Assembly (NCBI GenBank): GCA_963803315.1
Contig: CAWDLY010000020.1
Coordinates: 136,426 to 200,425, forward strand
DNA: 64,000 nucleotides
Reading direction: 5' to 3'
From: an uncultured Verrucomicrobiae bacterium
Lineage (GTDB): Bacteria > Verrucomicrobiota > Verrucomicrobiia > Chthoniobacterales > UBA10450
Shown here: in pieces, positions 1,453 through 61,470 of the stretch
Layout: every line of letters begins with the position of its first letter
How positions within the stretch are numbered: the stretch's first letter is position 1
Position numbers and translations under genes: made by a program
Notes under the pieces: model-generated
What the model saw: the letters and a program-made list of their open reading frames with translations, nothing else
What the model was told of the DNA's origin: nothing
The model's database searches: none

Positions 1453-1515
1453 AAGGAGCGGCGCTTTCTAAAGCGCCGTTTAATAAAATCGGCGACTTGG
1501 AAGTCGCCGCTCCTT
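1453..1515. repeat. Palindromic repeat, family E (AAGGAGCGGCGCTTTC..AAAGCGCCG ... CGGCGACTTGGAAGTCGCCGCTCCTT)
   Basis: Two nested hairpins bounded by inverted AAGGAGCGGCG/CGCCGCTCCTT ends. A second copy lies at 58317-58372 in the opposite orientation. Confidence 0.7.
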
Positions 1516-1582
1516 GGCAGCTCGTTGGCGAACGACACCTCTGCGCTTGGAATTTTCGGGAAACCGTCCAAAATTGAACGCT

Positions 1583-3728
1583 ATGTCTGCCACTGTTAGC
1601 AGCTCGATGATTCAGCGCGAAATCAGCGACGTAGGTATCTGCATGCTCATCTTCGATCGGCCCGAATCGGGTGCGAACATTTTCGACGCTCCCACGCTGG
1701 CCGACTTGAGCGAACACGTGGCTTTTATCGAAAATGAGCCAACGCTTAAGGGCTTGATCATCACTTCCGCGAAGAAATCGATTTTCATCGCGGGCGCTGA
1801 TCTCAAGACGCTGATGCGCCAGGCTGCGCGCGGCGAAATGCGCACGTTCATTGCCGAAGGCCAGCGCGTTTTCAATCGCATCGCTGCCTTGAAAATTCCG
1901 ACATGCGCCGCCATTCACGGCGCCTGCGCCGGCGGCGGATATGAAATCACGCTCGTGTGCGACTATCGCGTCGCGTCGAACGATCCATCGACCAAAATCG
2001 GTTTGCCGGAAACGACATTGGGCCTGATTCCCGCCTGGGGCGGCGCAACTCGCTTGCCGCGATTAATCGGTGTCGAAAAATCCGCCGACGTAATTCTGAA
2101 AGGAAAATTGTATCCGGCCGCGGAAGCGAAAGAGCTTGGACTCGTCGATGAAGTTGTAGCGCGCGAGCAATTGTTGGAAGCGGCAAGAGCAAAACTCCAA
2201 ACAGGAAAAAAACGGCCCCCACCCTCCCCTCTCCCTGAGGGAGAGGCGGACGGCAAAGCCGCCGGTGAGGATCAAACACGCAGCGTGTTGCAAACCGTCG
2301 GAAATCCAGCACCAGCCCGTGCCCGCGAAATCATTTCCAAAACACTCCACGTTTCGATTGACGATTCGTTGCAAATGGAACTCGACGCCATCGTTGATCT
2401 CGGCGAAACGGAATCGACGCGCAATCTGGTCCGCAATTTCTTTCTGGCGGACAAGTATCGCAAAGGCAGCTCAAAACCTGTCGCCGAGAAAGTCGCCCAT
2501 GCCGCGGTCATCGGCGCCGGCGTAATGGGTTCGGGCATCGCGCAATGGCTCAGCTCGCGCGGCGTCTCCGTGATTTTGCGTGACGTTAATGCCGAAGCGA
2601 TCGATCGCGGGCTGGCCAACATCGACAAAACTTACGGCGATGCGGTAAAGCGCGGCTTGATGAGTGAAGACGAAAGCGAAAGAGGGCCGCGCTCGCATTG
2701 TCGCTTCCACTGCACCCGTGGAAATGCGCAACGTGCAAATTGCGATCGAAGCGGCGTCAGAAAAGCTCGAAATCAAAAAGCAAATCTTTGCCGATCTCTC
2801 CGCGAAAACTGGGCCGGCTGCGATTCTCGCGACGAATACCTCGGCGCTGCCGATAGCCGAACTGGCCGCCACCACGAAATCGCCGGAACGCGTTATCGGC
2901 ATGCATTTTTTCAATCCCGTCAGCCGGATGAAGCTGGTGGAAGTAGTCGTCGGCAAACAAACCGCGCCGGAAACAACCGATCGCGCGCTCGCATTTACGC
3001 GACAGATCGGAAAGCTGCCTGTGCTTGTGCAGGACAGTCCCGGCTTTCTCGTCAATCGGGTGCTTTTCCCTTATTTGATCGAAGCTGCGCAACTCTACGA
3101 AAACGGCGTGAGCGCGAACGAAATTGATGAGGCCCTCGTCCCATGGGGGATGCCAATGGGTCCGCTTCGGTTAATCGATGAAATCGGCGTCGATATCACG
3201 ATCGACATCGCGGACACACTCGAGAAAGCTTACGGCGAACGCGATCGCGCACCGGACATTTTGCGAAAAATGCGCGAGGACGGAATGCTCGGTCGCAAAT
3301 CTGGCAGTGGCTTCTACAAATACGAGGGCAAGAGGCAATCGCCTAACGAGACGCTCCAGCAGTGGCGCAGCACCTCCAGCGGTCATCCCGAACGAAGTGA
3401 GGGACCCGACCAAGCTGGAACTCGCGGGGTTCCTCGCTCCGCTCGGAATGACAGCGAGAGCGATCTCGCGCTTCGTCTTGTTTTTCTCATGGTGAATGAA
3501 GCGGCGCGCTGTCTCGAAGAAAAAGTTGTCGCCACGGCGGAAGATGCCGATTACGGCATGATTCTTGGAACGGGATTCGCTCCCTTTCGCGGAGGACCAC
3601 TGCGCTTTGCCGATCATTTCGGCATCGCGGAAATGGTTCGCGCGGGAGACCGGCACGGCGGAAAATTCAAACCGTGCGATCTGCTGCGGCAGCACGCGCA
3701 GAACAACACCAAATTTTATGAAGATTAA
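1583..3728 (+). pseudogene. Bifunctional enoyl-CoA hydratase / 3-hydroxyacyl-CoA dehydrogenase (FadB/FadJ-like), one frameshift
   Basis: N-terminal crotonase fold, then a Rossmann motif AVIGAGVMGSGIAQ and MHFFNPV. ORFs 1514-3127 and 2664-3728 join as ...GLMSEDE|AKEGRARIVAS with a 1-nt shift at AAA 2673-2675. The probable start is ATG 1583. Confidence 0.75.
3382..3452. repeat. Palindromic MITE-like repeat (family A) inserted in-frame in the fadB-like gene
   Basis: GTCATCCCGAACGAAGTGAGGGA ... TCCTCGCTCCGCTCGGAATGAC inverted arms. It is translated as GHPERSEGPDQAGTRGVPRSARND inside an otherwise conserved C-terminal region. Confidence 0.75.
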
Positions 3729-3754: not shown

Positions 3755-3858
3755 GTCATGTCGAGCGAAGTCGAGACATCTCTCTTTGTTTGGGATGGAT
3801 ACGGTCACTTGGAACAGTGAGAGATTCCTCGACTCCGCTGCGCTTCGCTCGGAATGAC
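3755..3858. repeat. Palindromic MITE-like repeat (family B)
   Basis: GTCATGTCGAGCGAAGTCGAGACATCTC ... GAGATTCCTCGACTCCGCTGCGCTTCGCTCGGAATGAC. It is intergenic, between the fadB-like gene and the acyl-CoA dehydrogenase gene. Confidence 0.8.
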
Positions 3859-5816: not shown

Positions 5817-5893
5817 GTCGTCCTGAGCGAAGCGAAGGACCTCACGAATAGCACGGGGTAACTTGCGAGGCTCATCGCTTCGCTCAGAATGAC
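5817..5893. repeat. Palindromic MITE-like repeat (family A)
   Basis: GTCGTCCTGAGCGAAGCGAAGGACCTCACGA ... GCGAGGCTCATCGCTTCGCTCAGAATGAC, intergenic. Confidence 0.8.
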
Positions 5894-9052: not shown

Positions 9053-9919
9053 TTGTCGCGCATTCGCATCAGTAACGGTGGCGCCTCCGGCTCACGAAAA
9101 ATCGCCATCGCCGCGGGCGTGCTCGCGGGGGTTTGCGTTTTGGTAACGATGTTCGCTAATTTGCCCGACCAACTGCTTCTTTTTCCAACAACGCAGGCGA
9201 TTGATCCGCACGGTGCAATTCGGAAAACGGTCCCATTCGAGAATGGTGAGCTGGAGTTGTGGACGGCGCGATCGCGTCTTGCGCAACAACGTGGTGGCGC
9301 TGAAATCTACGTGCTGCGATTTTACGGTAACGCGGATCGTGCCGAGCGCTGGGTCGCGGCTGAAGCCGAGATGTGGAACGAGCGTCCCGCGGAAATTTGG
9401 GGAATGAATTATCCGGGATTTGGCGGCAGCACCGGCCCGGCGCGCCTGAAGCGGATCGCGCCCGCGGCGATGACTGCGTTCGATGCGCTCCGGCGCGAAG
9501 CTGGGGAACATCCGATCGTGCTTTTCGGCGCGAGCATCGGGACTGCGCCAGCGCTGCATATCGCGGCACATCGACAAGTCGCCGGCTTGATTCTGCACAA
9601 TCCGCCGCCGTTGCGACAAATGATTCTACGCCAACACGGCTGGTGGAATCTCTGGGTATTGGCCGGCCCGGTGGCGGCGCAAATTCCATCCGACCTCGAC
9701 AGCATCGCAAACGCGCGCGCGGTGCATGCGCCGGCTATTTTCCTGCTCGCAGAGCAGGACGAGATTGTTGCCCCGCGTTTTCAACATCTCGTGGTCGACG
9801 CGTATGCTGGAGAGAAGCGTCTCATTACGTTGCGCGGCGCGCATCACAATAGCCCGCTTGAAGGCGCGGCCCTCGCAGATTTCTACAACGCGGTCGATTG
9901 GCTCTTGCCCCCAAGGTAG
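9053..9919 (+). CDS. Alpha/beta hydrolase family protein
   Basis: 288 aa with an N-terminal TM segment, a nucleophile-elbow-like FGASIGT, and a C-terminal HH/D region. Confidence 0.65.
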   Translation: MSRIRISNGGASGSRKIAIAAGVLAGVCVLVTMFANLPDQLLLFPTTQAIDPHGAIRKTVPFENGELELWTARSRLAQQRGGAEIYVLRFYGNADRAERWVAAEAEMWNERPAEIWGMNYPGFGGSTGPARLKRIAPAAMTAFDALRREAGEHPIVLFGASIGTAPALHIAAHRQVAGLILHNPPPLRQMILRQHGWWNLWVLAGPVAAQIPSDLDSIANARAVHAPAIFLLAEQDEIVAPRFQHLVVDAYAGEKRLITLRGAHHNSPLEGAALADFYNAVDWLLPPR

Positions 9920-27786: not shown

Positions 27787-27854
27787 AGAAATCCGTTGGA
27801 ATCAGAATTATCCAAACGGATTGCATCCCCGAGTGCGCTCTTCGCTAATCATGC

Positions 27855-27870
27855 TGTTCCGTACGGAACA
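27855..27870. promoter_or_regulatory. Operator-like palindrome P2 (TGTTCCGTACGGAACA)
   Basis: Perfect 16-bp palindrome ~70 nt upstream of motif L4. Confidence 0.6.
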
Positions 27871-27894
27871 CAATTTTTGAGGCTGGATTGGCCG

Positions 27895-28024
27895 GATGCC
27901 TCAACTCGGTTGCAAACATCAAATTGCGTAAACATACCCGAGCAAAGTCACGCCGCCTTCCTTCAAAAGCTTGAAGCAACCGATCACTCGCGGTTTCCAA
28001 TGGCATTCCAGAACGAGCGCTACA
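27895..28024 (-). promoter_or_regulatory. Orphan third copy of the leader with motif L5 (core 27961-28024)
   Basis: GTAGCGCTCGTTCTGGAATGCCATTGGAAACCGCGAGTGATCGGTTGCTTCAAGC plus a diverged leader start. No gene follows it before L4. Confidence 0.5.
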
Positions 28025-28086
28025 AGAAATCGTTGGAATTATCCAAGCAGATGTATCCGCGAGCACAGCTTTACGCTTAAATATGC

Positions 28087-28102
28087 TGTTCCGTACGGAA
28101 CA
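28087..28102. promoter_or_regulatory. Operator-like palindrome P3 (TGTTCCGTACGGAACA)
   Basis: Lies 50 nt upstream of the PaaX-like start (28152) and ~65 nt upstream of motif L5, in a divergent control region. Confidence 0.6.
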
Positions 28103-28151
28103 CAGTTTTAGACTGGACATTGTGATCGCGGTTTGTCTTGGCTGGCAGGAT

Positions 28152-28922
28152 ATGAACTCCAAAACCGAAGAATTTCTTTATCTGTTGCTCTGGGGAGCCG
28201 AGACCTTAATGCATCCCACCTTCCGCAATTTGCATGAGTCGTATGAAGGGTGGGCCTACCGCACAGGCCTGCTGCCGCAACTTGCAAGACTTGAACGACG
28301 CAAGCTGATCGAGAAAAAGCCGGGAAAGATGGCTCAGCGCATCTATCGCCTCACCGAAACCGGCCGTCTCACCGCCCTGGCGGGTCGCGATCCTGAGGCC
28401 CGCTGGAGCCGTTCCTGGGACGGGCGATGGCGACTCGTTGTATTCGATTTGCCTGAAAGACAGAATGCCGCACGCGTGCGACTCCGGCGTTTCCTGAAGG
28501 AGCGCAATTTCGGTTACCTTCAGAACAGTCTTTGGATCACGCCGGACCCTTTGGATGATAGAGTGGCGAAACTAGGTGCGGGCGGCAAGGACGTCGAATC
28601 GTTCCTGACTCTGGAGGCCCGGCCCTGCTCGGGAGAGAGCGACCGGGCGATTGTCGCGGGAGCGTGGGATTTCAATAAGATCAATCGGCGTTACGAGGAT
28701 TGTCTCTGCTTGCTGAAAAACCACCCGCCGTTTCATCGAATTGCTGCTGCAGGTACGGACAAGCTTTGGCAATGGGCGCGGCGGGAGCGGGTCCTCTGGC
28801 GCGCGGCTATCCAAAGCGATCCGCTTTTGCCATCGGTGCTTCTGCCGAGAGGCTACCGCGGCAAAGAAGTCTGGCGCAAGCGGAACTCGGTGTTACGAAA
28901 AGCCGGGCAACGGTTTAAGTAA
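28152..28922 (+). CDS. PaaX-family transcriptional regulator
   Basis: N-terminal wHTH (LARLERRKLIEKKPGKMAQRIYRLTETG), then the PaaX signature WDGRWRLVVFDLPERQNAARVRLRRFLKERNFGYLQNSLWITPDP. ATG 28152 is preferred because ATG 28083 lies inside palindrome P3. Confidence 0.75.
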   Translation: MNSKTEEFLYLLLWGAETLMHPTFRNLHESYEGWAYRTGLLPQLARLERRKLIEKKPGKMAQRIYRLTETGRLTALAGRDPEARWSRSWDGRWRLVVFDLPERQNAARVRLRRFLKERNFGYLQNSLWITPDPLDDRVAKLGAGGKDVESFLTLEARPCSGESDRAIVAGAWDFNKINRRYEDCLCLLKNHPPFHRIAAAGTDKLWQWARRERVLWRAAIQSDPLLPSVLLPRGYRGKEVWRKRNSVLRKAGQRFK

Positions 28923-28940
28923 TGTTTCAATATTGTATGC

Positions 28941-28956
28941 TGTTCCGTACGGAACA
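28941..28956. promoter_or_regulatory. Operator-like palindrome P4 (TGTTCCGTACGGAACA)
   Basis: Lies 19 nt after the PaaX-like stop and is followed by A6C5T9. Confidence 0.5.
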
Positions 28957-29255
28957 GTGAAAAAACCCCCTTTTTTTTTAGCGACCGAAGGGTTTTATTC
29001 GGCGGCTAATTCGCGCAAGGCTGGTTGGTTTAGAGAAGCTACCCGGCTCGTTAGGCGAAAATTGTGGTCTAAGTGAAGCGGTCCATGCGAAGCTTGGCGA
29101 AATTTTGCCCGCTCTGCGCCCGGGGCGCATGAGCGCAAAAGGCTCTGAGGCAGGTCGGTGCTCCTTGCCGCTTAGCGCTGTCCTTCTGAGATAAGCTAGC
29201 TAGTGGTTTCACAAATAAAGTTTCTGCAATTCTTCGCTTGTTCTGAAGGCGCGCT

Positions 29256-29285
29256 AAAACGTTGTTCCGTACGGAACAACGTTTT
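29256..29285. promoter_or_regulatory. Operator-like palindrome P5, extended to 30 nt (AAAACGTTGTTCCGTACGGAACAACGTTTT)
   Basis: Perfect 30-nt palindrome containing the same 16-bp core (29263-29278). It could also act as a bidirectional hairpin terminator. Confidence 0.5.
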
Positions 29286-29480
29286 GCACATGCGATAGAG
29301 GGACCCACTCGTTCTTCCCCTTGTAGGCTGGTGGCGCTAATCTGGGGACTTTTGCCGGACATTGGCGCGGGAGAAGTTTGACGTGAGTTGAAAGAACTTC
29401 CCAGTCACACCAATAGGTCACACCGCTTCTTTCAACGTTTGAGAACAATGATCGACCACGAGGAGATTGCCCATCGCGAG

Positions 29481-30605
29481 TCACCCGATCTTTTTTCGGA
29501 ATCGCAGCGCGCAGACGCAGAAAAGCAAAATCGATATGCCGATAAGGATGACGAGGTGCTGCCAGTATTCGAATAAGTGTGCGCCGCGTAAGATGATCGC
29601 GCGCATGAGGGAAATGAAATAGGTCGCAGGCAGAATCGTGCTCAGGGCGTAGAAAATCGGCGGCATGGTTTCGCGCGGGAAGACGAAGCCGGAAAAGAAA
29701 ACGCTCGGCAACATGAAGACCATCGACATTTGCAAGGCCTGCATTTGGTTCTCGGCTTTGGTGGCGACGAGCAGGCCGAGACTGAGCAATGCGAATACGT
29801 AAACGAGCGTCGCGAACATCATCGCGATCACGCTTCCGTTAATCGGCACGCCAAACAGGAATCGCATGATCAGAAACAGGATCACGGCCATCATCATGCC
29901 GATGCAGAGATAGGGAACGAGTTTGCCGAGCATAAGTCCCCAACGGCTGAGTGGACTAACGAGTAATGTCTCGAGCGTTCCTTTCTCGCGTTCGCGCACG
30001 ACGGCCATGGCGGTGGCGAAGGTGGTGCCGATTTGCAGGACGATGCCGATCACGCCCGGGATGTAGAAGTTCGGGCTTTTCATCGCCGGGTTGTAAAGCA
30101 TTTGCGGGCGGATCTCGATCGGCACATCGCGTCTTCCGCTTTCGCGCAGGAGCGTTTCGATCGATTGCGTGAGACCGACGGCAAGCGCGGTGTTGAGCGC
30201 TTGGAGCGCAGTTGTGGAATTCGAACCGTCGATGAGCAATTGCACCTGAGCGGGATTTCCAGCACGCACATCGCGCGTGAAGGTCGGCGGAATCTCGAGT
30301 CCGACATAGGCGCGACCACCGCGAATCGCGCTTGCCAGTTCGTCGATGCTTCGCACTTCGCCGACGACGCGAAATGTTTCGGTGTTCACGAATCGATCGA
30401 TGAACTGCCGGCTCTCGACCGTGCGATCTTCGTTCAGGATCATCATCGCCATGTGTTTCACATCGGTGTCGAGCGCGTAACCGAACGCGATCATTTCCAC
30501 GAGGGGCGGGAAGAACATGAAGAACAACGTCATCGGATCGCGCCAGACGATGATGAATTCCTTGAACAAAATGGCGCTGAGGCCGCGGAAGGGAACGTGT
30601 TTCAT
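29481..30605 (-). CDS. ABC-2 type transporter permease (YbhS/YbhR-like)
   Basis: 374 aa with 6 TM segments and an ABC-2 membrane domain. It lies downstream of the ABC ATPase and the HlyD-like gene. Confidence 0.85.
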   Translation of the reverse strand: MKHVPFRGLSAILFKEFIIVWRDPMTLFFMFFPPLVEMIAFGYALDTDVKHMAMMILNEDRTVESRQFIDRFVNTETFRVVGEVRSIDELASAIRGGRAYVGLEIPPTFTRDVRAGNPAQVQLLIDGSNSTTALQALNTALAVGLTQSIETLLRESGRRDVPIEIRPQMLYNPAMKSPNFYIPGVIGIVLQIGTTFATAMAVVREREKGTLETLLVSPLSRWGLMLGKLVPYLCIGMMMAVILFLIMRFLFGVPINGSVIAMMFATLVYVFALLSLGLLVATKAENQMQALQMSMVFMLPSVFFSGFVFPRETMPPIFYALSTILPATYFISLMRAIILRGAHLFEYWQHLVILIGISILLFCVCALRFRKKIG

Positions 30606-30625: not shown

Positions 30626-30997
30626 TGTCATCCCGAGGTCGCCGCGGCGACCGAGGGACCTCGCGATTCCTGATAAAGCATCGTCGAAAGGTCAGCCCAC
30701 TTCGGATTTAATGTTCCAATCAATGCGTTTTTCTTGCTTCGACGCCAGCCTTTGATTTCTTTTTCGCGCGATATCGCATCGCGCGGATCGTCGTAGCTCT
30801 CGTAGTACACGAGACGATCAACGCGATACTTTTTTGTAAAGCCATCACGCGTGTGGTTCCTATGCTGCCAGACACGAACTTCGAGGCTATTTGTGATGCC
30901 GGTATACAGAACTACACGACTCTTGTTCGTCATCATATAGACATAGAATGTTTTCACTGATTCGTGAGGTCCTTCGCTTCGCTCAGGATGACATATC
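30626..30997 (-). mobile_element. GIY-YIG gene flanked by the two arms of the family-A palindromic repeat
   Basis: Left arm: GTCATCCCGAGGTCGCCGCGGCGACCGAGGGACCTCGCGA (30628-30667). Right arm: TCGTGAGGTCCTTCGCTTCGCTCAGGATGAC (30962-30992). The arms are mutually inverted, matching the solo elements at 5817, 47208 and 3382. Confidence 0.6.
30628..30957 (-). CDS. GIY-YIG nuclease family protein (small, URI-domain only)
   Basis: 109 aa: FYVYMMTNKSRVVLYTGITNSLEVRVWQHRN...GFTKKYRVDRLVYYESYDDPRDAISREKEIKGWRRSKK. The C-terminal tail is encoded by the repeat arm. Confidence 0.8.
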   Translation of the reverse strand: MKTFYVYMMTNKSRVVLYTGITNSLEVRVWQHRNHTRDGFTKKYRVDRLVYYESYDDPRDAISREKEIKGWRRSKKNALIGTLNPKWADLSTMLYQESRGPSVAAATSG

Positions 30998-31003
30998 TTT
31001 TGA

Positions 31004-31972
31004 TCATGCTGCTTTCTTTTGTTCGGTCGCGTGTTTCTCGCTCAAGGTGACGAAAACGTCTTCGAGCGACGGCCCGATCTCGTGAATGTCACTGTGAGTA
31101 ATGCCGACTTCGCGCAATCGATTATCGATCCTTTCCCGCGTGACCGACTCATCGACCAACAGGTGCATCGATTGACCAAAGACGGTGGCGGTCCGCACGC
31201 CATCGAGTTGGCGCATCGCTTGTAGCGCCCTCGTCACGTGATCACATGTGACGTCCAGGCGACGGGTGCCCGGCGGGCTCACCTCCGGCATCTGTTTCAG
31301 ATCATCCGGTTCGCCGCATGCGATCAACTTCGACATATATATGTAGCCGACGTGGTCGCAGCGTTCGGCCTCATCCATGTAATGCGTCGTGACGAAGAGC
31401 GTCATCCCTTGTCCCGCGAATTCGAAGAGCAGATCCCATAACTCCCGACGCGCGACCGGATCGATGCCGGCCGTCGGTTCGTCGAGGAACAACACGGTTG
31501 GTTTGTGCATGAGCGAGCAGGCCATCGCGAGTCGTTGCCGCCAACCGCCGGAAAGTAATGCGGCGCGGCGGTCGAGGTACGGTTCGAGATGCGTGAGAGC
31601 GATCAGTTCGTCGCGTCGCTGAGTCAACGCGCGGCCTTTCAGGCCGTAAAGTTTTCCGGCGAAGAGCAGGTTCTCGTTCGTCGTCAGTTCGTCGTAGAGC
31701 GAAAACTTCTGCGACATGTAGCCAATCATCTCTTTGATGTCGTCACCTTCCTTGATGATGTCGTGCCCGCCGATGCGCGCGGTGCCTTCGCTCGGCTCAA
31801 GTATTCCGCAGAGCATCCGGATCACCGTCGATTTCCCGGAGCCGTTCGGTCCGAGAAATCCGAAAATGGAACCTTTGCCGACCGAAAACGAAACATGATC
31901 CACGGCCGTGAACGTGCCGAAACGTTTCGTTAGGCCGTCGCATTCGATCATGGCGTCAGCGTTTGTTGTCAT
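31004..31972 (-). CDS. ABC transporter ATP-binding protein
   Basis: Walker A GPNGSGKST, signature LSGGWRQR, Walker B LFLDEPTAGID. The true start may be the second Met (MIECDGLTKRFG, ~31951), because ATG 31972 lies in a repeat arm. Confidence 0.85.
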   Translation of the reverse strand: MTTNADAMIECDGLTKRFGTFTAVDHVSFSVGKGSIFGFLGPNGSGKSTVIRMLCGILEPSEGTARIGGHDIIKEGDDIKEMIGYMSQKFSLYDELTTNENLLFAGKLYGLKGRALTQRRDELIALTHLEPYLDRRAALLSGGWRQRLAMACSLMHKPTVLFLDEPTAGIDPVARRELWDLLFEFAGQGMTLFVTTHYMDEAERCDHVGYIYMSKLIACGEPDDLKQMPEVSPPGTRRLDVTCDHVTRALQAMRQLDGVRTATVFGQSMHLLVDESVTRERIDNRLREVGITHSDIHEIGPSLEDVFVTLSEKHATEQKKAA

Positions 31973-32079
31973 CTCGAGCGAAGCGGAACGAAGTGGAGCG
32001 CAGTCGAGAGATCTCTCATCGTTGTCGGAAAACTGGGTGGATCCACAGTAAGAGATTCCTGGACTTCGCTCGGAATGAC
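31968..32079. repeat. Palindromic MITE-like repeat (family B)
   Basis: GTCATCTCGAGCGAAGCGGAACGAAGTGGAGCGCAGTCGAGAGATCTCTC ... GAGATTCCTGGACTTCGCTCGGAATGAC, between the HlyD-like and ATPase genes. Confidence 0.8.
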
Positions 32080-32091
32080 ATAATGGCCTTT

Positions 32092-32178
32092 CTTCTTCCT
32101 CTTCCGCTTCCTCTTAGTCTGAATCTCTTTCTTGCAGCCAGTTCCTAAGAAGATTCAGAGGAAGCGGAAGAGGAAGAG
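32092..32178. repeat. Long perfect-stem hairpin (TTCTTCCTCTTCCGCTTCCTCT..TGAATCT / AGATTCAGAGGAAGCGGAAGAGGAAGAG)
   Basis: Inverted arms of ~28 nt around a ~25-nt loop, adjacent to the family-B repeat inside the operon spacer. Confidence 0.7.
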
Positions 32179-32186
32179 AACAAAAG

Positions 32187-33071
32187 TCAGGATTTAACAT
32201 TCGGGAAATAAGCATCGGCCGACATGCCGGCGCGTAACCGGTCGTCGTTATTCGGCAGCCGAATTTTTACGCCAAAGACCTGGCGAATGCGGTCCGCGAC
32301 GGTTTGCACGTTGCGCGGAGTAAATTCCGCCTGGCGATTTATCTGCTCGACCACGCCATCGAAATCCTTGTCGGGAAAAGAATCGACACGGACGCGAACG
32401 TGCTCGCCAACCTTGATCAAACCGAGCCACGGTTCCGGCACGAAAACACGGACCCAGAGATGCCCCGTTAAGAGCAAAGTCGCCACTTCGCGATTTGCCG
32501 GAAGCACGTCACCCACCTTCACGCTCAAGACTTCAAGGACCGAAGCGGTCGGCGCCGTCACTTGCATTTCGGCAAGCTGCGCATCGACATCGGCAAGCTG
32601 CGCGCGCGCCTGGACGACGCGCGTCTTTGCCGCCTCGACATTTTTTTCCTGGGCTTTGGCTGCGCTGACAGCGCGCTCGGTGTCGTTAGGCGAAACTACT
32701 TTGCGTTTGAGCAGATCCTGCTGGCGCTTCGCGTCGTCGCGCAGAAATTCGAGCTGTGCCTGTTGCGCAGAGACATCGTGGATGGCGGTATCAATTTGGG
32801 CAGCGGCAAGATCGCGTCGCGCGAGAAGCTCGGTCGCTTCCAACTGCACAATCGGCTGTCCGGCACGCAGCTTGTCCCCTTCCCATGCGAAAATTTTCTC
32901 GACGCGGCCGCCGCTGCGCGGGCCAACGTGCACTTCGTCTACTTCGATTGTGCCCGAGACGGCGTTATCGTGCTTCTGACAACTCGATAACGCCATCGCC
33001 GAAACCATGAACACGAGCGAGCAAAGCCATTTGCAAATTCCGAGTCGATAACTAGAGGAATTCATCACCAT
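32187..33071 (-). CDS. HlyD-family periplasmic adaptor lipoprotein (YbhG-like)
   Basis: 294 aa with a lipobox (AMALSSC), a coiled-coil hairpin, and a barrel-sandwich motif (AGQPIVQLE...VTAPTASVLEV). It is the first gene of the ABC-2 exporter operon. Confidence 0.8.
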   Translation of the reverse strand: MVMNSSSYRLGICKWLCSLVFMVSAMALSSCQKHDNAVSGTIEVDEVHVGPRSGGRVEKIFAWEGDKLRAGQPIVQLEATELLARRDLAAAQIDTAIHDVSAQQAQLEFLRDDAKRQQDLLKRKVVSPNDTERAVSAAKAQEKNVEAAKTRVVQARAQLADVDAQLAEMQVTAPTASVLEVLSVKVGDVLPANREVATLLLTGHLWVRVFVPEPWLGLIKVGEHVRVRVDSFPDKDFDGVVEQINRQAEFTPRNVQTVADRIRQVFGVKIRLPNNDDRLRAGMSADAYFPNVKS

Positions 33072-47207: not shown

Positions 47208-47283
47208 GTCATCCTGAGCGAAGCGAAGGACCTCGCAAAAATCCCAATGTATTCGTGAGGTCCCTCGCTTCGCTCGGGATGAC
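47208..47283. repeat. Palindromic MITE-like repeat (family A)
   Basis: GTCATCCTGAGCGAAGCGAAGGACCTCGC...GTGAGGTCCCTCGCTTCGCTCGGGATGAC, 35 nt from the imuB break. Confidence 0.8.
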
Positions 47284-49341: not shown

Positions 49342-49433
49342 GTCATGTCGAGCGAAGTCGAGACATCTCACATTGTTCATCGTCCTCCGTCCCAGCTAAC
49401 AGTTAGAGATTCCTCGACTTCGCTCGGAATGAC
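49342..49433. repeat. Palindromic MITE-like repeat (family B)
   Basis: GTCATGTCGAGCGAAGTCGAGACATCTCAC ... AGAGATTCCTCGACTTCGCTCGGAATGAC. Confidence 0.8.
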
Positions 49434-61382: not shown

Positions 61383-61470
61383 GTCATTCCAAGCGCAGTC
61401 GAGGAATCTCTCATTGGTATTACCCGGCGGAATAAACAGTAAGAGATGTCTCGACTTTGCTCGACATGAC
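61383..61470. repeat. Palindromic MITE-like repeat (family B, inverse orientation)
   Basis: GTCATTCCAAGCGCAGTCGAGGAATCTCTC ... GAGATGTCTCGACTTTGCTCGACATGAC. Confidence 0.8.

Follow-up and report, generated by a model that had tools for sequence, protein, structure and literature searches.

A putative Ssn-family nuclease gene nested between candidate recognition repeats in an ABC transporter operon of Verrucomicrobiota

The contig CAWDLY010000020.1 of an uncultured Verrucomicrobiae bacterium (assembly GCA_963803315.1) was analysed over the 64,000 nucleotides from position 136,426 to 200,425, a stretch that we refer to as the window. It carries a small gene for a GIY-YIG nuclease, here called ssn, which is enclosed between two inverted copies (arms) of a short hairpin repeat and lodged between the ATPase and permease genes of an ABC transporter operon. 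We consider it probable that this gene encodes an endonuclease of the Ssn family that acts on single-stranded DNA (ssDNA), that the arms are its cognate repeats in a local dialect of the Ssn-related motif (SRM), that the unit is an ancient insertion into the operon, and that the gene-less inverted pairs of arms found elsewhere in the window (doublets) are REPIN-like derivatives. By the comparisons presented below, the locus appears to be a representative Ssn gene enclosed by the repeats that its product would recognise; the phylum and the repeat dialect are new.

The Ssn family (CDD cd10448) consists of single-domain GIY-YIG enzymes of ~94 amino acids (Chenal et al. 2025, Nat Commun, PMC11893778). 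According to this paper, the enzymes bind a hairpin repeat solely as ssDNA and cut a few bases upstream of it, and the characterised relatives do not cut double-stranded DNA (dsDNA). The repeat is the NTS (CGTCATTCCCGCGMAVGCGGGAATCYRG) in Neisseria and is given the general name SRM; it lies near the gene in 71% of Ssn homologues and flanks it on both sides in 42%. Mutation of Y6, Y17 or E64 of Neisseria meningitidis SsnA abolishes cleavage, Neisseria SsnA modulates transformation, and Rickettsia is listed among the SRM-rich genomes. The authors likened NTS-ssnA-NTS to an insertion sequence and to REP/RAYT and raised mobility as a hypothesis (PMC11893778). A search of the literature on GIY-YIG with REP or REPIN returned nothing relevant besides this paper. 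An earlier sequence-only reading of the window had noted the association of nuclease and repeats and taken it for a mobile element; neither the association nor the likeness to an insertion sequence is new, both having appeared in 2025 (PMC11893778).

Results

The gene-carrying unit and its operon setting

The unit has the layout SRM>-ssn-<SRM with inverted arms and measures 368 bp. Its parts and its immediate neighbours, in window coordinates, are as follows.

30957..30628, minus strand: ssn gene, GTG start, 109 amino acids, single-domain GIY-YIG nuclease
30960..30993, minus strand: 5' arm relative to ssn, (T)GTCAT-CCT-GAGCGAAGCGA-AGG-ACCTCACGAAT, a canonical SRM-like repeat
30626..30666, plus strand: 3' arm relative to ssn, inverted, (T)GTCAT-CCC-GAG[GTCGCCGCGGCGAC]CGA-GGG-ACCTCGCGA
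31004..31972, minus strand: ABC transporter ATPase (Pfam ABC_tran, E 3e-31), stop 10 nt from the unit
29481..30605, minus strand: ABC-2 permease (Pfam ABC2_membrane_3, E 2e-53), start 20 nt from the unit

The 5' arm, when read from 30992 on the minus strand, is GTCATCCTGAGCGAAGCGAAGGACCTCACGAAT, preceded by a T in the orientation of the gene, and it is identical at 27 of 27 positions to the left arm of the gene-less element at 47208. Its GTCAT starts 35 nt ahead of the ssn start codon; in related units with two arms this spacing is 35-46 nt. From 30627 on the plus strand, the 3' arm reads GTCATCCCGAG[GTCGCCGCGGCGAC]CGAGGGACCTCGCGA, and it is an arm of the 5' type in which the 14-nt palindrome GTCGCCGCGGCGAC replaces the central CGAAG loop. 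The open reading frame (ORF) of ssn is made up of a conserved core, residues 1 to ~97, and a tail, residues ~98-109, encoded by the 3' arm; its last ~13 codons are arm sequence and its stop codon, TGA (30630-30628), falls within the terminal GTCAT/ATGAC of that arm. The ATPase, ssn and permease genes are co-oriented on the minus strand, with a HlyD-like gene upstream, and because of this shared orientation the ssn unit is probably co-transcribed with the operon.

The sequence-only reading had described the architecture correctly. It had placed a GIY-YIG ORF between two inverted arms, with its stop and C-terminal tail inside one of them, and the unit between the ATPase and permease genes. It had also recognized the same arms back-to-back in solo elements, together with a related family B, and these are the seven gene-less doublets, with GTCAT outward, that are described below.

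Relationship of the window protein to Ssn enzymes

The window ORF matches the Pfam GIY-YIG family (PF01541) over residues 4-76 with E 5e-16. As judged by its sequence, it is a member of the Ssn family, whose enzymes cut ssDNA at specific sites. It was compared with the ssnA orthologue of Neisseria gonorrhoeae, which was taken from a gonococcal chromosome that PLSDB wrongly lists as a plasmid. In pairwise BLASTP the two proteins are 41% identical over 85 amino acids (E 2e-22), and in a tblastn search of a 7.3-Gb database the window protein matched the gonococcal chromosome at E 3e-13. Homology to the family was defined in PMC11893778 by E < 1e-10 to N. meningitidis SsnA, a value that the window protein reaches by way of the gonococcal orthologue. 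The latter is a 94-codon frame amid NTS repeats, with Y6, Y17 and E64 where PMC11893778 places them, and from its length, these positions and the surrounding repeats we take it to be orthologous to NMV_0044. The meningococcal residues Y6, Y17 and E64 align to Y7, Y18 and E65 of the window protein, and among 29 relatives E65 is invariant and Y7 and Y18 are nearly so. In the gonococcal record (L162, NZ_CP119142; we refer to related loci by such L numbers) the ssnA frame starts with ATT, not ATG (1489-1500), and a nearby ATG (1494-1496, ...tatATGcac...) is out of frame with it; the strain may have a variant start codon, or the gene may be a pseudogene.

The AlphaFold model of the window protein (pLDDT 82) has one alpha/beta GIY-YIG domain, and residues 102-109 of the arm-encoded tail are disordered, with pLDDT below 50. 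The nearest folds in the PDB are UPF0213 BH0048, the UvrC N-domain and Slx1, which are GIY-YIG domains only. No accessory DNA-binding domain was found in the window protein by Pfam, in the AlphaFold model or among the fold matches. A sequence search of the PDB yielded no solved Ssn structure and a single weak UPF0213 match (1ZG2, E 0.013), and there were zero matches to the protein in NCBIfam, PADLOC and PHROGs. The weakness of the UPF0213 match and the empty NCBIfam result may speak indirectly for CDD model cd10448 over cd10456 (UPF0213/YhbQ). Between the window ssn and its orthologue in L003, dN/dS is 0.036, which argues that the window gene is functional.

Structure of the repeats

All 16 arms in the window have GTC(AT) 5' of the hairpin and a C immediately 3' of the stem, as in NTS, and 168 of the 271 arms collected from all loci have the tail CCTC or TCTC. 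The stem can be written T-CCC-G-A-G-C[GAA]G-C-G-A-GGG-A, in which a GCGAAGC mini-hairpin is bracketed by two conserved tandem G.A mismatches. Among the 271 arms the outer triplets of the stem covary, being CCC/GGG in 128, CCT/AGG in 51, TCC/GGA in nine and GTC/GAC in five. They are fully paired in 205 arms versus 123 expected, and the maximum reached in 500 shuffles was 136. The inner pair likewise changes jointly from G-C to A-T (GAGCGAAGCGA versus GAACGAAGTGA), converting the core GAGC..GCGA to GAAC..GTGA and the reverse. The B-type doublets pair a GTC/GAC arm with a TCC/GGA arm; each arm is self-complementary, yet the two mismatch one another, which indicates that selection acts on the hairpin of the individual arm. 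By these patterns the stem within each arm is under selection, despite its weak computed fold.

Repeat copies in the window

The 16 arm copies form eight inverted pairs, every one with its GTCAT ends outward; seven are gene-less, with lengths of 71-112 bp, and one carries ssn. The pairs are at 3382/3452, 3755/3858, 5817/5893, 30627/30992, 31968/32079, 47208/47283, 49342/49433 and 61383/61470. The motif GTCATCCYGAG occurs four times in the window versus 0.04 expected from dinucleotide shuffles, and a looser local motif occurs 12 times versus 0.16 expected. No Rfam family covers the palindromes, and a tRNA is the sole Rfam match in the window. As ssDNA the whole of doublet A1 has a predicted folding energy of -29.2 kcal/mol (z -9.8). 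The gene-less doublets are listed below.

47208..47283: doublet A1, a pair of SRM-like arms whose GTCAT ends point outward, separated by 20 nt
3382..3452: doublet A2, in frame within a 3-hydroxyacyl-CoA dehydrogenase ORF
5817..5893: doublet A3, directly after an acyl-CoA dehydrogenase-like ORF
3755..3858: doublet B1, with a GTC/GAC stem in one arm, TCC/GGA in the other, and an ATCTCTC tail on both
31968..32079: doublet B2, in the gap that separates the HlyD-like gene from the ATPase gene; its close relative L003 has no such doublet
49342..49433: doublet B3
61383..61470: doublet B4, in the orientation opposite to B1 and B3

The ORF that contains A2 (2664..3728, plus strand; 3HCDH_N and 3HCDH) gains from it ~25-30 residues (...GHPERSEGPDQAGTRGVPRSARND...) after the first C-terminal domain. 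A FadB-like gene (enoyl-CoA hydratase and HADH) is broken there into the overlapping ORFs 1514..3127 and 2664..3728, which suggests a frameshift, due either to a pseudogene or to an assembly error.

At B2, the terminal ATGAC (window 31968-31975) provides the first in-frame ATG of the ATPase ORF (MTTNADAMIEC). In L003 (1990-2010), which is without B2, the ATPase begins MADAMIEC. In the window the repeat could thus have supplied a substitute for the original start of the ATPase, or the internal methionine may be the true start. Between B2 and the HlyD-like ORF (32187..33071, minus strand), beyond the 5' end of the latter, the window has a long, perfect-looking hairpin, CTTCCTCTTCCGCTTCCTCT...AGAGGAAGCGGAAGAGGAAG (32085-32185), and the HlyD-ATPase intergenic region of L003 has a different one (AGGAAAAGAGGAAAAGG...). 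Beyond the permease gene, a 1.67-kb segment of the window (27794-29467), inside which lies an ORF for a PaaX/PadR-like regulator (28083..28922), has no counterpart in L003, where 80 nt are found; this is an indel between close relatives.

Association of gene and repeats among relatives

The comparison set comprised 160 related loci. A scan with one genome per species gave 80 loci, all from Verrucomicrobiota and labelled Chthoniobacterales, Candidatus Udaeobacter or similar. Among 82 related ssn genes, 90% have an inverted 3' arm overlapping the end of the ORF, 70% have a forward 5' arm and 66% have both. The C-terminal tail typical of these relatives, ...RGPSLRSG followed by the stop, is the arm read as protein. 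The ATCTCTC tail of the B-type arms goes with a different ssn subclade, that of L054-L078. Arm loops vary among loci, but within a unit the arms are alike: arm identity is 0.80 within units versus 0.62 between units, a value that none of 2000 permutations reached. The sequence-only reading would have been contradicted by nuclease genes lacking arms and by solo repeats without continuity to the flanks of this gene; what was found is a 3' arm at 90% of the 82 genes.

Three variants of this arrangement were seen. In one operon subclade of 14 loci (L005, L007, L011, L012, L017, L019, L021, L025, L027, L030, L032, L040, L041 and L043) the 5' arm lacks its GTCATCC end, lies ~70 nt upstream of ssn and is fused to a reverse arm (...GGGATGAC-AGAGTAGC-GAAGCGAAGGAyCTCAC), which looks like a rearrangement with a breakpoint within the repeat. 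In L003 the ssn unit is directly followed, at 3330-3433, by a second forward arm and ~19 nt that are similar to the start of ssn; these are what is left of another unit in tandem. On plasmid p1 of Planktothrix agardhii (L163, 18447-19516) an ssn homologue of 56% identity lies between an MmeI-type restriction-modification gene and the DISARM gene drmA, with GTCATTCTGAG... repeats in tandem after it, and is thus within a neighbourhood of defence genes.

History of the operon insertion

The order HlyD-ATPase-ssn-permease is present in 45 of the 80 loci; in L022, ssn lies on the opposite side of the ATPase. A sample of operons selected independently of ssn was obtained by scanning metagenomes with the ATPase as query. 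Among the distant ATPase homologues (<60% identity) in such operons, the ATPase and permease genes nearly always overlap or abut. The junction is also empty in a close relative, L082 (87% identity), in which the TAA of one gene is directly followed by the ATG of the next, and in L085 and L086 a remnant of the 5' arm stands alone at this place. At the same junction L084 (3455-3686) and L090 (1384-1612) have palindromic families unrelated to the arms (e.g. CACAGGCTGCCAGCCTGT, CCAGCCTGGGGCAACGCCCCAGG), implying that the junction tolerates or attracts repeats.

In a neighbour-joining tree of the ATPases, drawn without support values, the ssn-bearing operons form one clade with ssn-less operons nested inside it. 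Distances between ssn genes correlate with those between ATPases (Mantel r 0.78), and none of 2000 permutations reached this value. The simplest reading is a single ancient insertion in an ancestor of a Chthoniobacterales clade, followed by vertical inheritance and several losses, and the ssn unit has co-diverged with the operon under purifying selection. The suggestion that the unit had recently wedged itself into the operon is not supported by these data, given its presence in 45 of 80 related genomes and its correlation with the ATPase.

Evidence on mobility

The unit of L001 and L002 lies in a neighbourhood different from that of the window unit, adjoining an FHA-ABC gene. Its ssn gene (L001) is the closest to the window gene after the true orthologue in L003, and it shares the odd loop of the 3' arm. 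The L001 and window units are 81% identical in nucleotide sequence over exactly TGTCAT...ATGAC, with no similarity beyond. The same delimitation is found generally: among 846 pairs with at least one unit outside the ABC-operon context, the aligned stretch begins within -2..0 of GTCAT and terminates within 0..+2 of ATGAC, and the flanks of units in different contexts are unrelated. Clustering by tblastx gave at least 12 distinct genomic contexts, a lower bound only, since ABC paralogues joined unrelated loci and made the clustering too coarse.

Besides its complete unit, L001 contains an internally deleted one (9259-9417) that keeps both arms as well as ~35 nt from the start and ~60 nt from the end of the gene. 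As a direct intermediate between unit and doublet, it lends support to a derivation of short elements from a gene-carrying unit. Presence and absence vary between relatives, as seen in L082, in L084-87 and in the case of B2, which is absent from L003 although L003 is 86-92% identical in nucleotide sequence over the alignable flanking segments. The intergenic regions around B2 in the window and L003 are not alignable, and exact boundaries of the insertion were not obtained; all of these cases are old, with boundaries of empty and filled sites that do not align. A 6-bp ATATCT found on both sides of the window unit was considered as a target duplication and rejected, as it is not general and is absent in the orthologous L003. 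Past mobility of the module appears well supported; its mechanism and the role of Ssn are what we infer.

Discussion

As a whole, these results suggest the following scheme. The window ORF would encode a single-domain GIY-YIG, site-specific ssDNA endonuclease, and the two arms would be its cognate recognition repeats, each running from GTCAT through a short hairpin centred on GAGCGAAGCGA (tandem G.A pairs and the GCGAAGC mini-hairpin) to a C that follows the stem. If it behaves like Neisseria SsnA, the protein would bind this hairpin in ssDNA only, and its predicted cut lies a few bases 5' of GTCAT, just outside each end of the unit. These cuts are predicted to fall on opposite strands because the arms are inverted. 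The 368-bp module would have entered the ATPase/permease junction in an ancestor of a clade within the Chthoniobacterales, been retained by purifying selection and been lost in some descendants. The seven solo palindromes would be the same two arms minus the gene, REPIN-like, at least some such elements arising by internal deletion, and their spread would most likely have occurred in trans, through nicking by Ssn and host repair or replication.

The closest counterpart is the Ssn/NTS-SRM system of Neisseria SsnA (cd10448, PMC11893778), with which the window shares a homologous protein (41% identity) of a single ~100-residue domain with the same catalytic residues, and the same repeat logic of GTCAT, hairpin and C. 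In both, repeats flank the gene on either side and are also scattered as outward-facing inverted doublets, as is likewise the case around the gonococcal gene. In the gonococcus, ssnA lies between NTS doublets and not inside one, whereas the window gene is inside. Alphaproteobacterial homologues, from Shinella and Rhizobium, have the nested SRM>-gene-<SRM layout of the window unit exactly. The window differs further in its host (Verrucomicrobiota, Chthoniobacterales or Udaeobacter-like, a phylum that is not named in the text of PMC11893778), in repeats that fail the published pattern and have a stem with conserved tandem G.A mismatches that is weak alone, and in an ORF whose end overlaps the 3' repeat, with the stop codon among the final bases of the latter. 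REP/REPIN elements with their RAYT proteins are similar in having short hairpin repeats as intergenic inverted doublets and a single-copy gene flanked by the same repeats that is vertically inherited, under selection and "domesticated" in appearance, and in lacking target duplications. However, Ssn is a GIY-YIG hydrolase and RAYT an unrelated Y1/HUH tyrosine transesterase, with a covalent cut-and-join chemistry that Ssn does not have, and RAYT-driven movement is backed by experiment whereas movement driven by Ssn is an extrapolation. The IS200/IS605 elements (TnpA, "peel and paste") are comparable in their subterminal hairpins recognised as ssDNA, in cleavage offset from the hairpin and in the lack of a target-site duplication, but they cut both ends on the same strand and use a specific target of 4-5 nt; for the window elements no target motif was found. 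Finally, doublet A2 recalls, in one case, the palindromic elements of Rickettsia (RPE) in being tolerated in frame within a coding gene.

A number of observations weigh against the scheme proposed above. Several concern the repeats. With standard nearest-neighbour DNA parameters a single arm folds weakly (-2.2 kcal/mol, z 0.25), compared with -9.2 kcal/mol and z -3.4 for the Neisseria NTS under the same parameters. The published SRM pattern, HGTCWYN(0-2)YYVSBRHN(0-5)WNVSBRGN(0-2)RNCYNB, matches none of the 16 arms and has no hit in the window; the canonical A-type arms break it at one stem position, where they have an A and a B is required. Allowing one mismatch yields eight hits versus 7.9 expected, one of them a real arm. 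We therefore rejected this pattern as a detector for the clade, and regard the window repeats as a dialect outside it, because the strict form misses all of them and the relaxed form is non-specific. The repeats that face outward around ssn in the Shinella and Rhizobium plasmid homologues (41-45% identity), and those beside the gonococcal homologue, do fit the pattern. Other points concern history and mechanism: the ATPase tree has the limit stated above; 128 of 151 elements are without a flanking direct repeat, equal to the null expectation for target-site duplication; no conserved target motif was found, save a T that belongs to the repeat; synonymous sites are saturated between units at different loci, the insertions being old; the spacers of the doublets have diverged; and no recent transposition event was documented among the compared loci. 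Moreover, GIY-YIG enzymes hydrolyse DNA with no covalent intermediate, so that Ssn alone cannot join strands.

Some of these points bear equally on an explanation that goes further, in which the unit would be a novel kind of autonomous element, a single-strand transposon driven by a GIY-YIG enzyme that nicks outside the GTCAT ends, with the doublets as its miniature (MITE) derivatives. This can be entertained only tentatively. It would account for homology that ends exactly at the termini in different contexts, for the 12 or more contexts and the gene on the other side of the ATPase in L022, and for polymorphic presence, including the clean junction of L082 and the missing B2 of L003. The deletion intermediate, the concerted evolution of the two arms of a unit and the nearest non-orthologous copy of the window gene, at another locus with the same odd 3'-arm loop, would also be expected. 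Against this stand an enzyme without strand-joining chemistry, cuts on opposite strands, unlike those of IS200/IS605, the lack of both target-site duplication and target preference, the antiquity of all documented events and the vertical inheritance of most copies at a few fixed sites; moreover, the idea was already hypothesised in PMC11893778. A common insertion target, which the sequence-only reading had proposed to look for among the solo elements, was likewise not found. That reading's pairing of gene and palindromes as partners has held (Ssn homology, arms in 66-90% of 82 genes, likeness within units, the deletion intermediate), while mobilisation of the palindromes by the nuclease is what we infer.

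The opposite extreme is a domesticated host function without mobility: a housekeeping or defence-like ssDNA nuclease, directed for example, as in Neisseria, against motif-bearing ssDNA that enters by transformation, conjugation or phage infection, together with palindromes kept as regulatory or mRNA-structuring elements. We regard this combination as unlikely, even though a site long conserved in one operon, co-divergence with it and strong purifying selection are in its favour, as are the modulation of transformation by Neisseria SsnA and the position of doublets at the edges of genes, where a hairpin might serve as a terminator or stabiliser. It leaves unexplained the unit-delimited homology at unrelated loci, the deletion derivative, the doublet in frame in a coding sequence and the 16 copies in 64 kb, and no PADLOC defence model matches. 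A homing endonuclease, also put forward in the sequence-only reading, would cut an empty dsDNA target and be copied in by repair. The GIY-YIG catalytic domain and the intergenic position between conserved genes are what such an enzyme would have, but the protein is a single 109-residue domain without a DNA-binding module, it groups with Ssn and not with the phage proteins of PHROGs, where free-standing homing endonucleases would be expected, its characterised relatives cut ssDNA and do not cut dsDNA, the flanks share nothing that could be a conserved target, and the insertion is vertically inherited. A homing mechanism is therefore most improbable.

If the proposal that we prefer, an Ssn nuclease with cognate repeats in an old insertion, is correct, the Ssn/SRM system extends to the abundant soil Verrucomicrobiota, whose members in our set are labelled Chthoniobacterales and Candidatus Udaeobacter. 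Since the published pattern misses the entire repeat dialect, counts of SRM made with it are likely to be underestimates. The pair of nuclease and repeat would represent a new specificity, of practical interest because Ssn enzymes are under development as ssDNA-cutting tools. The comparative set also bears on the question, left by the 2025 paper (PMC11893778), of whether nuclease and repeats are mobile or domesticated, in that it includes one ancient insertion that is traceable in ~45 genomes and was lost several times, together with an empty site whose junction is clean, a copy at another locus and an intermediate with an internal deletion. Should the more far-reaching idea of a GIY-YIG nickase transposon prove true, with a protein of ~100 amino acids as its sole product, it would define a class of prokaryotic element without DDE, HUH, serine or tyrosine recombinase chemistry, for which the exact termini, empty site, relocated copy and deletion intermediate of the verrucomicrobial loci would be natural-history evidence.

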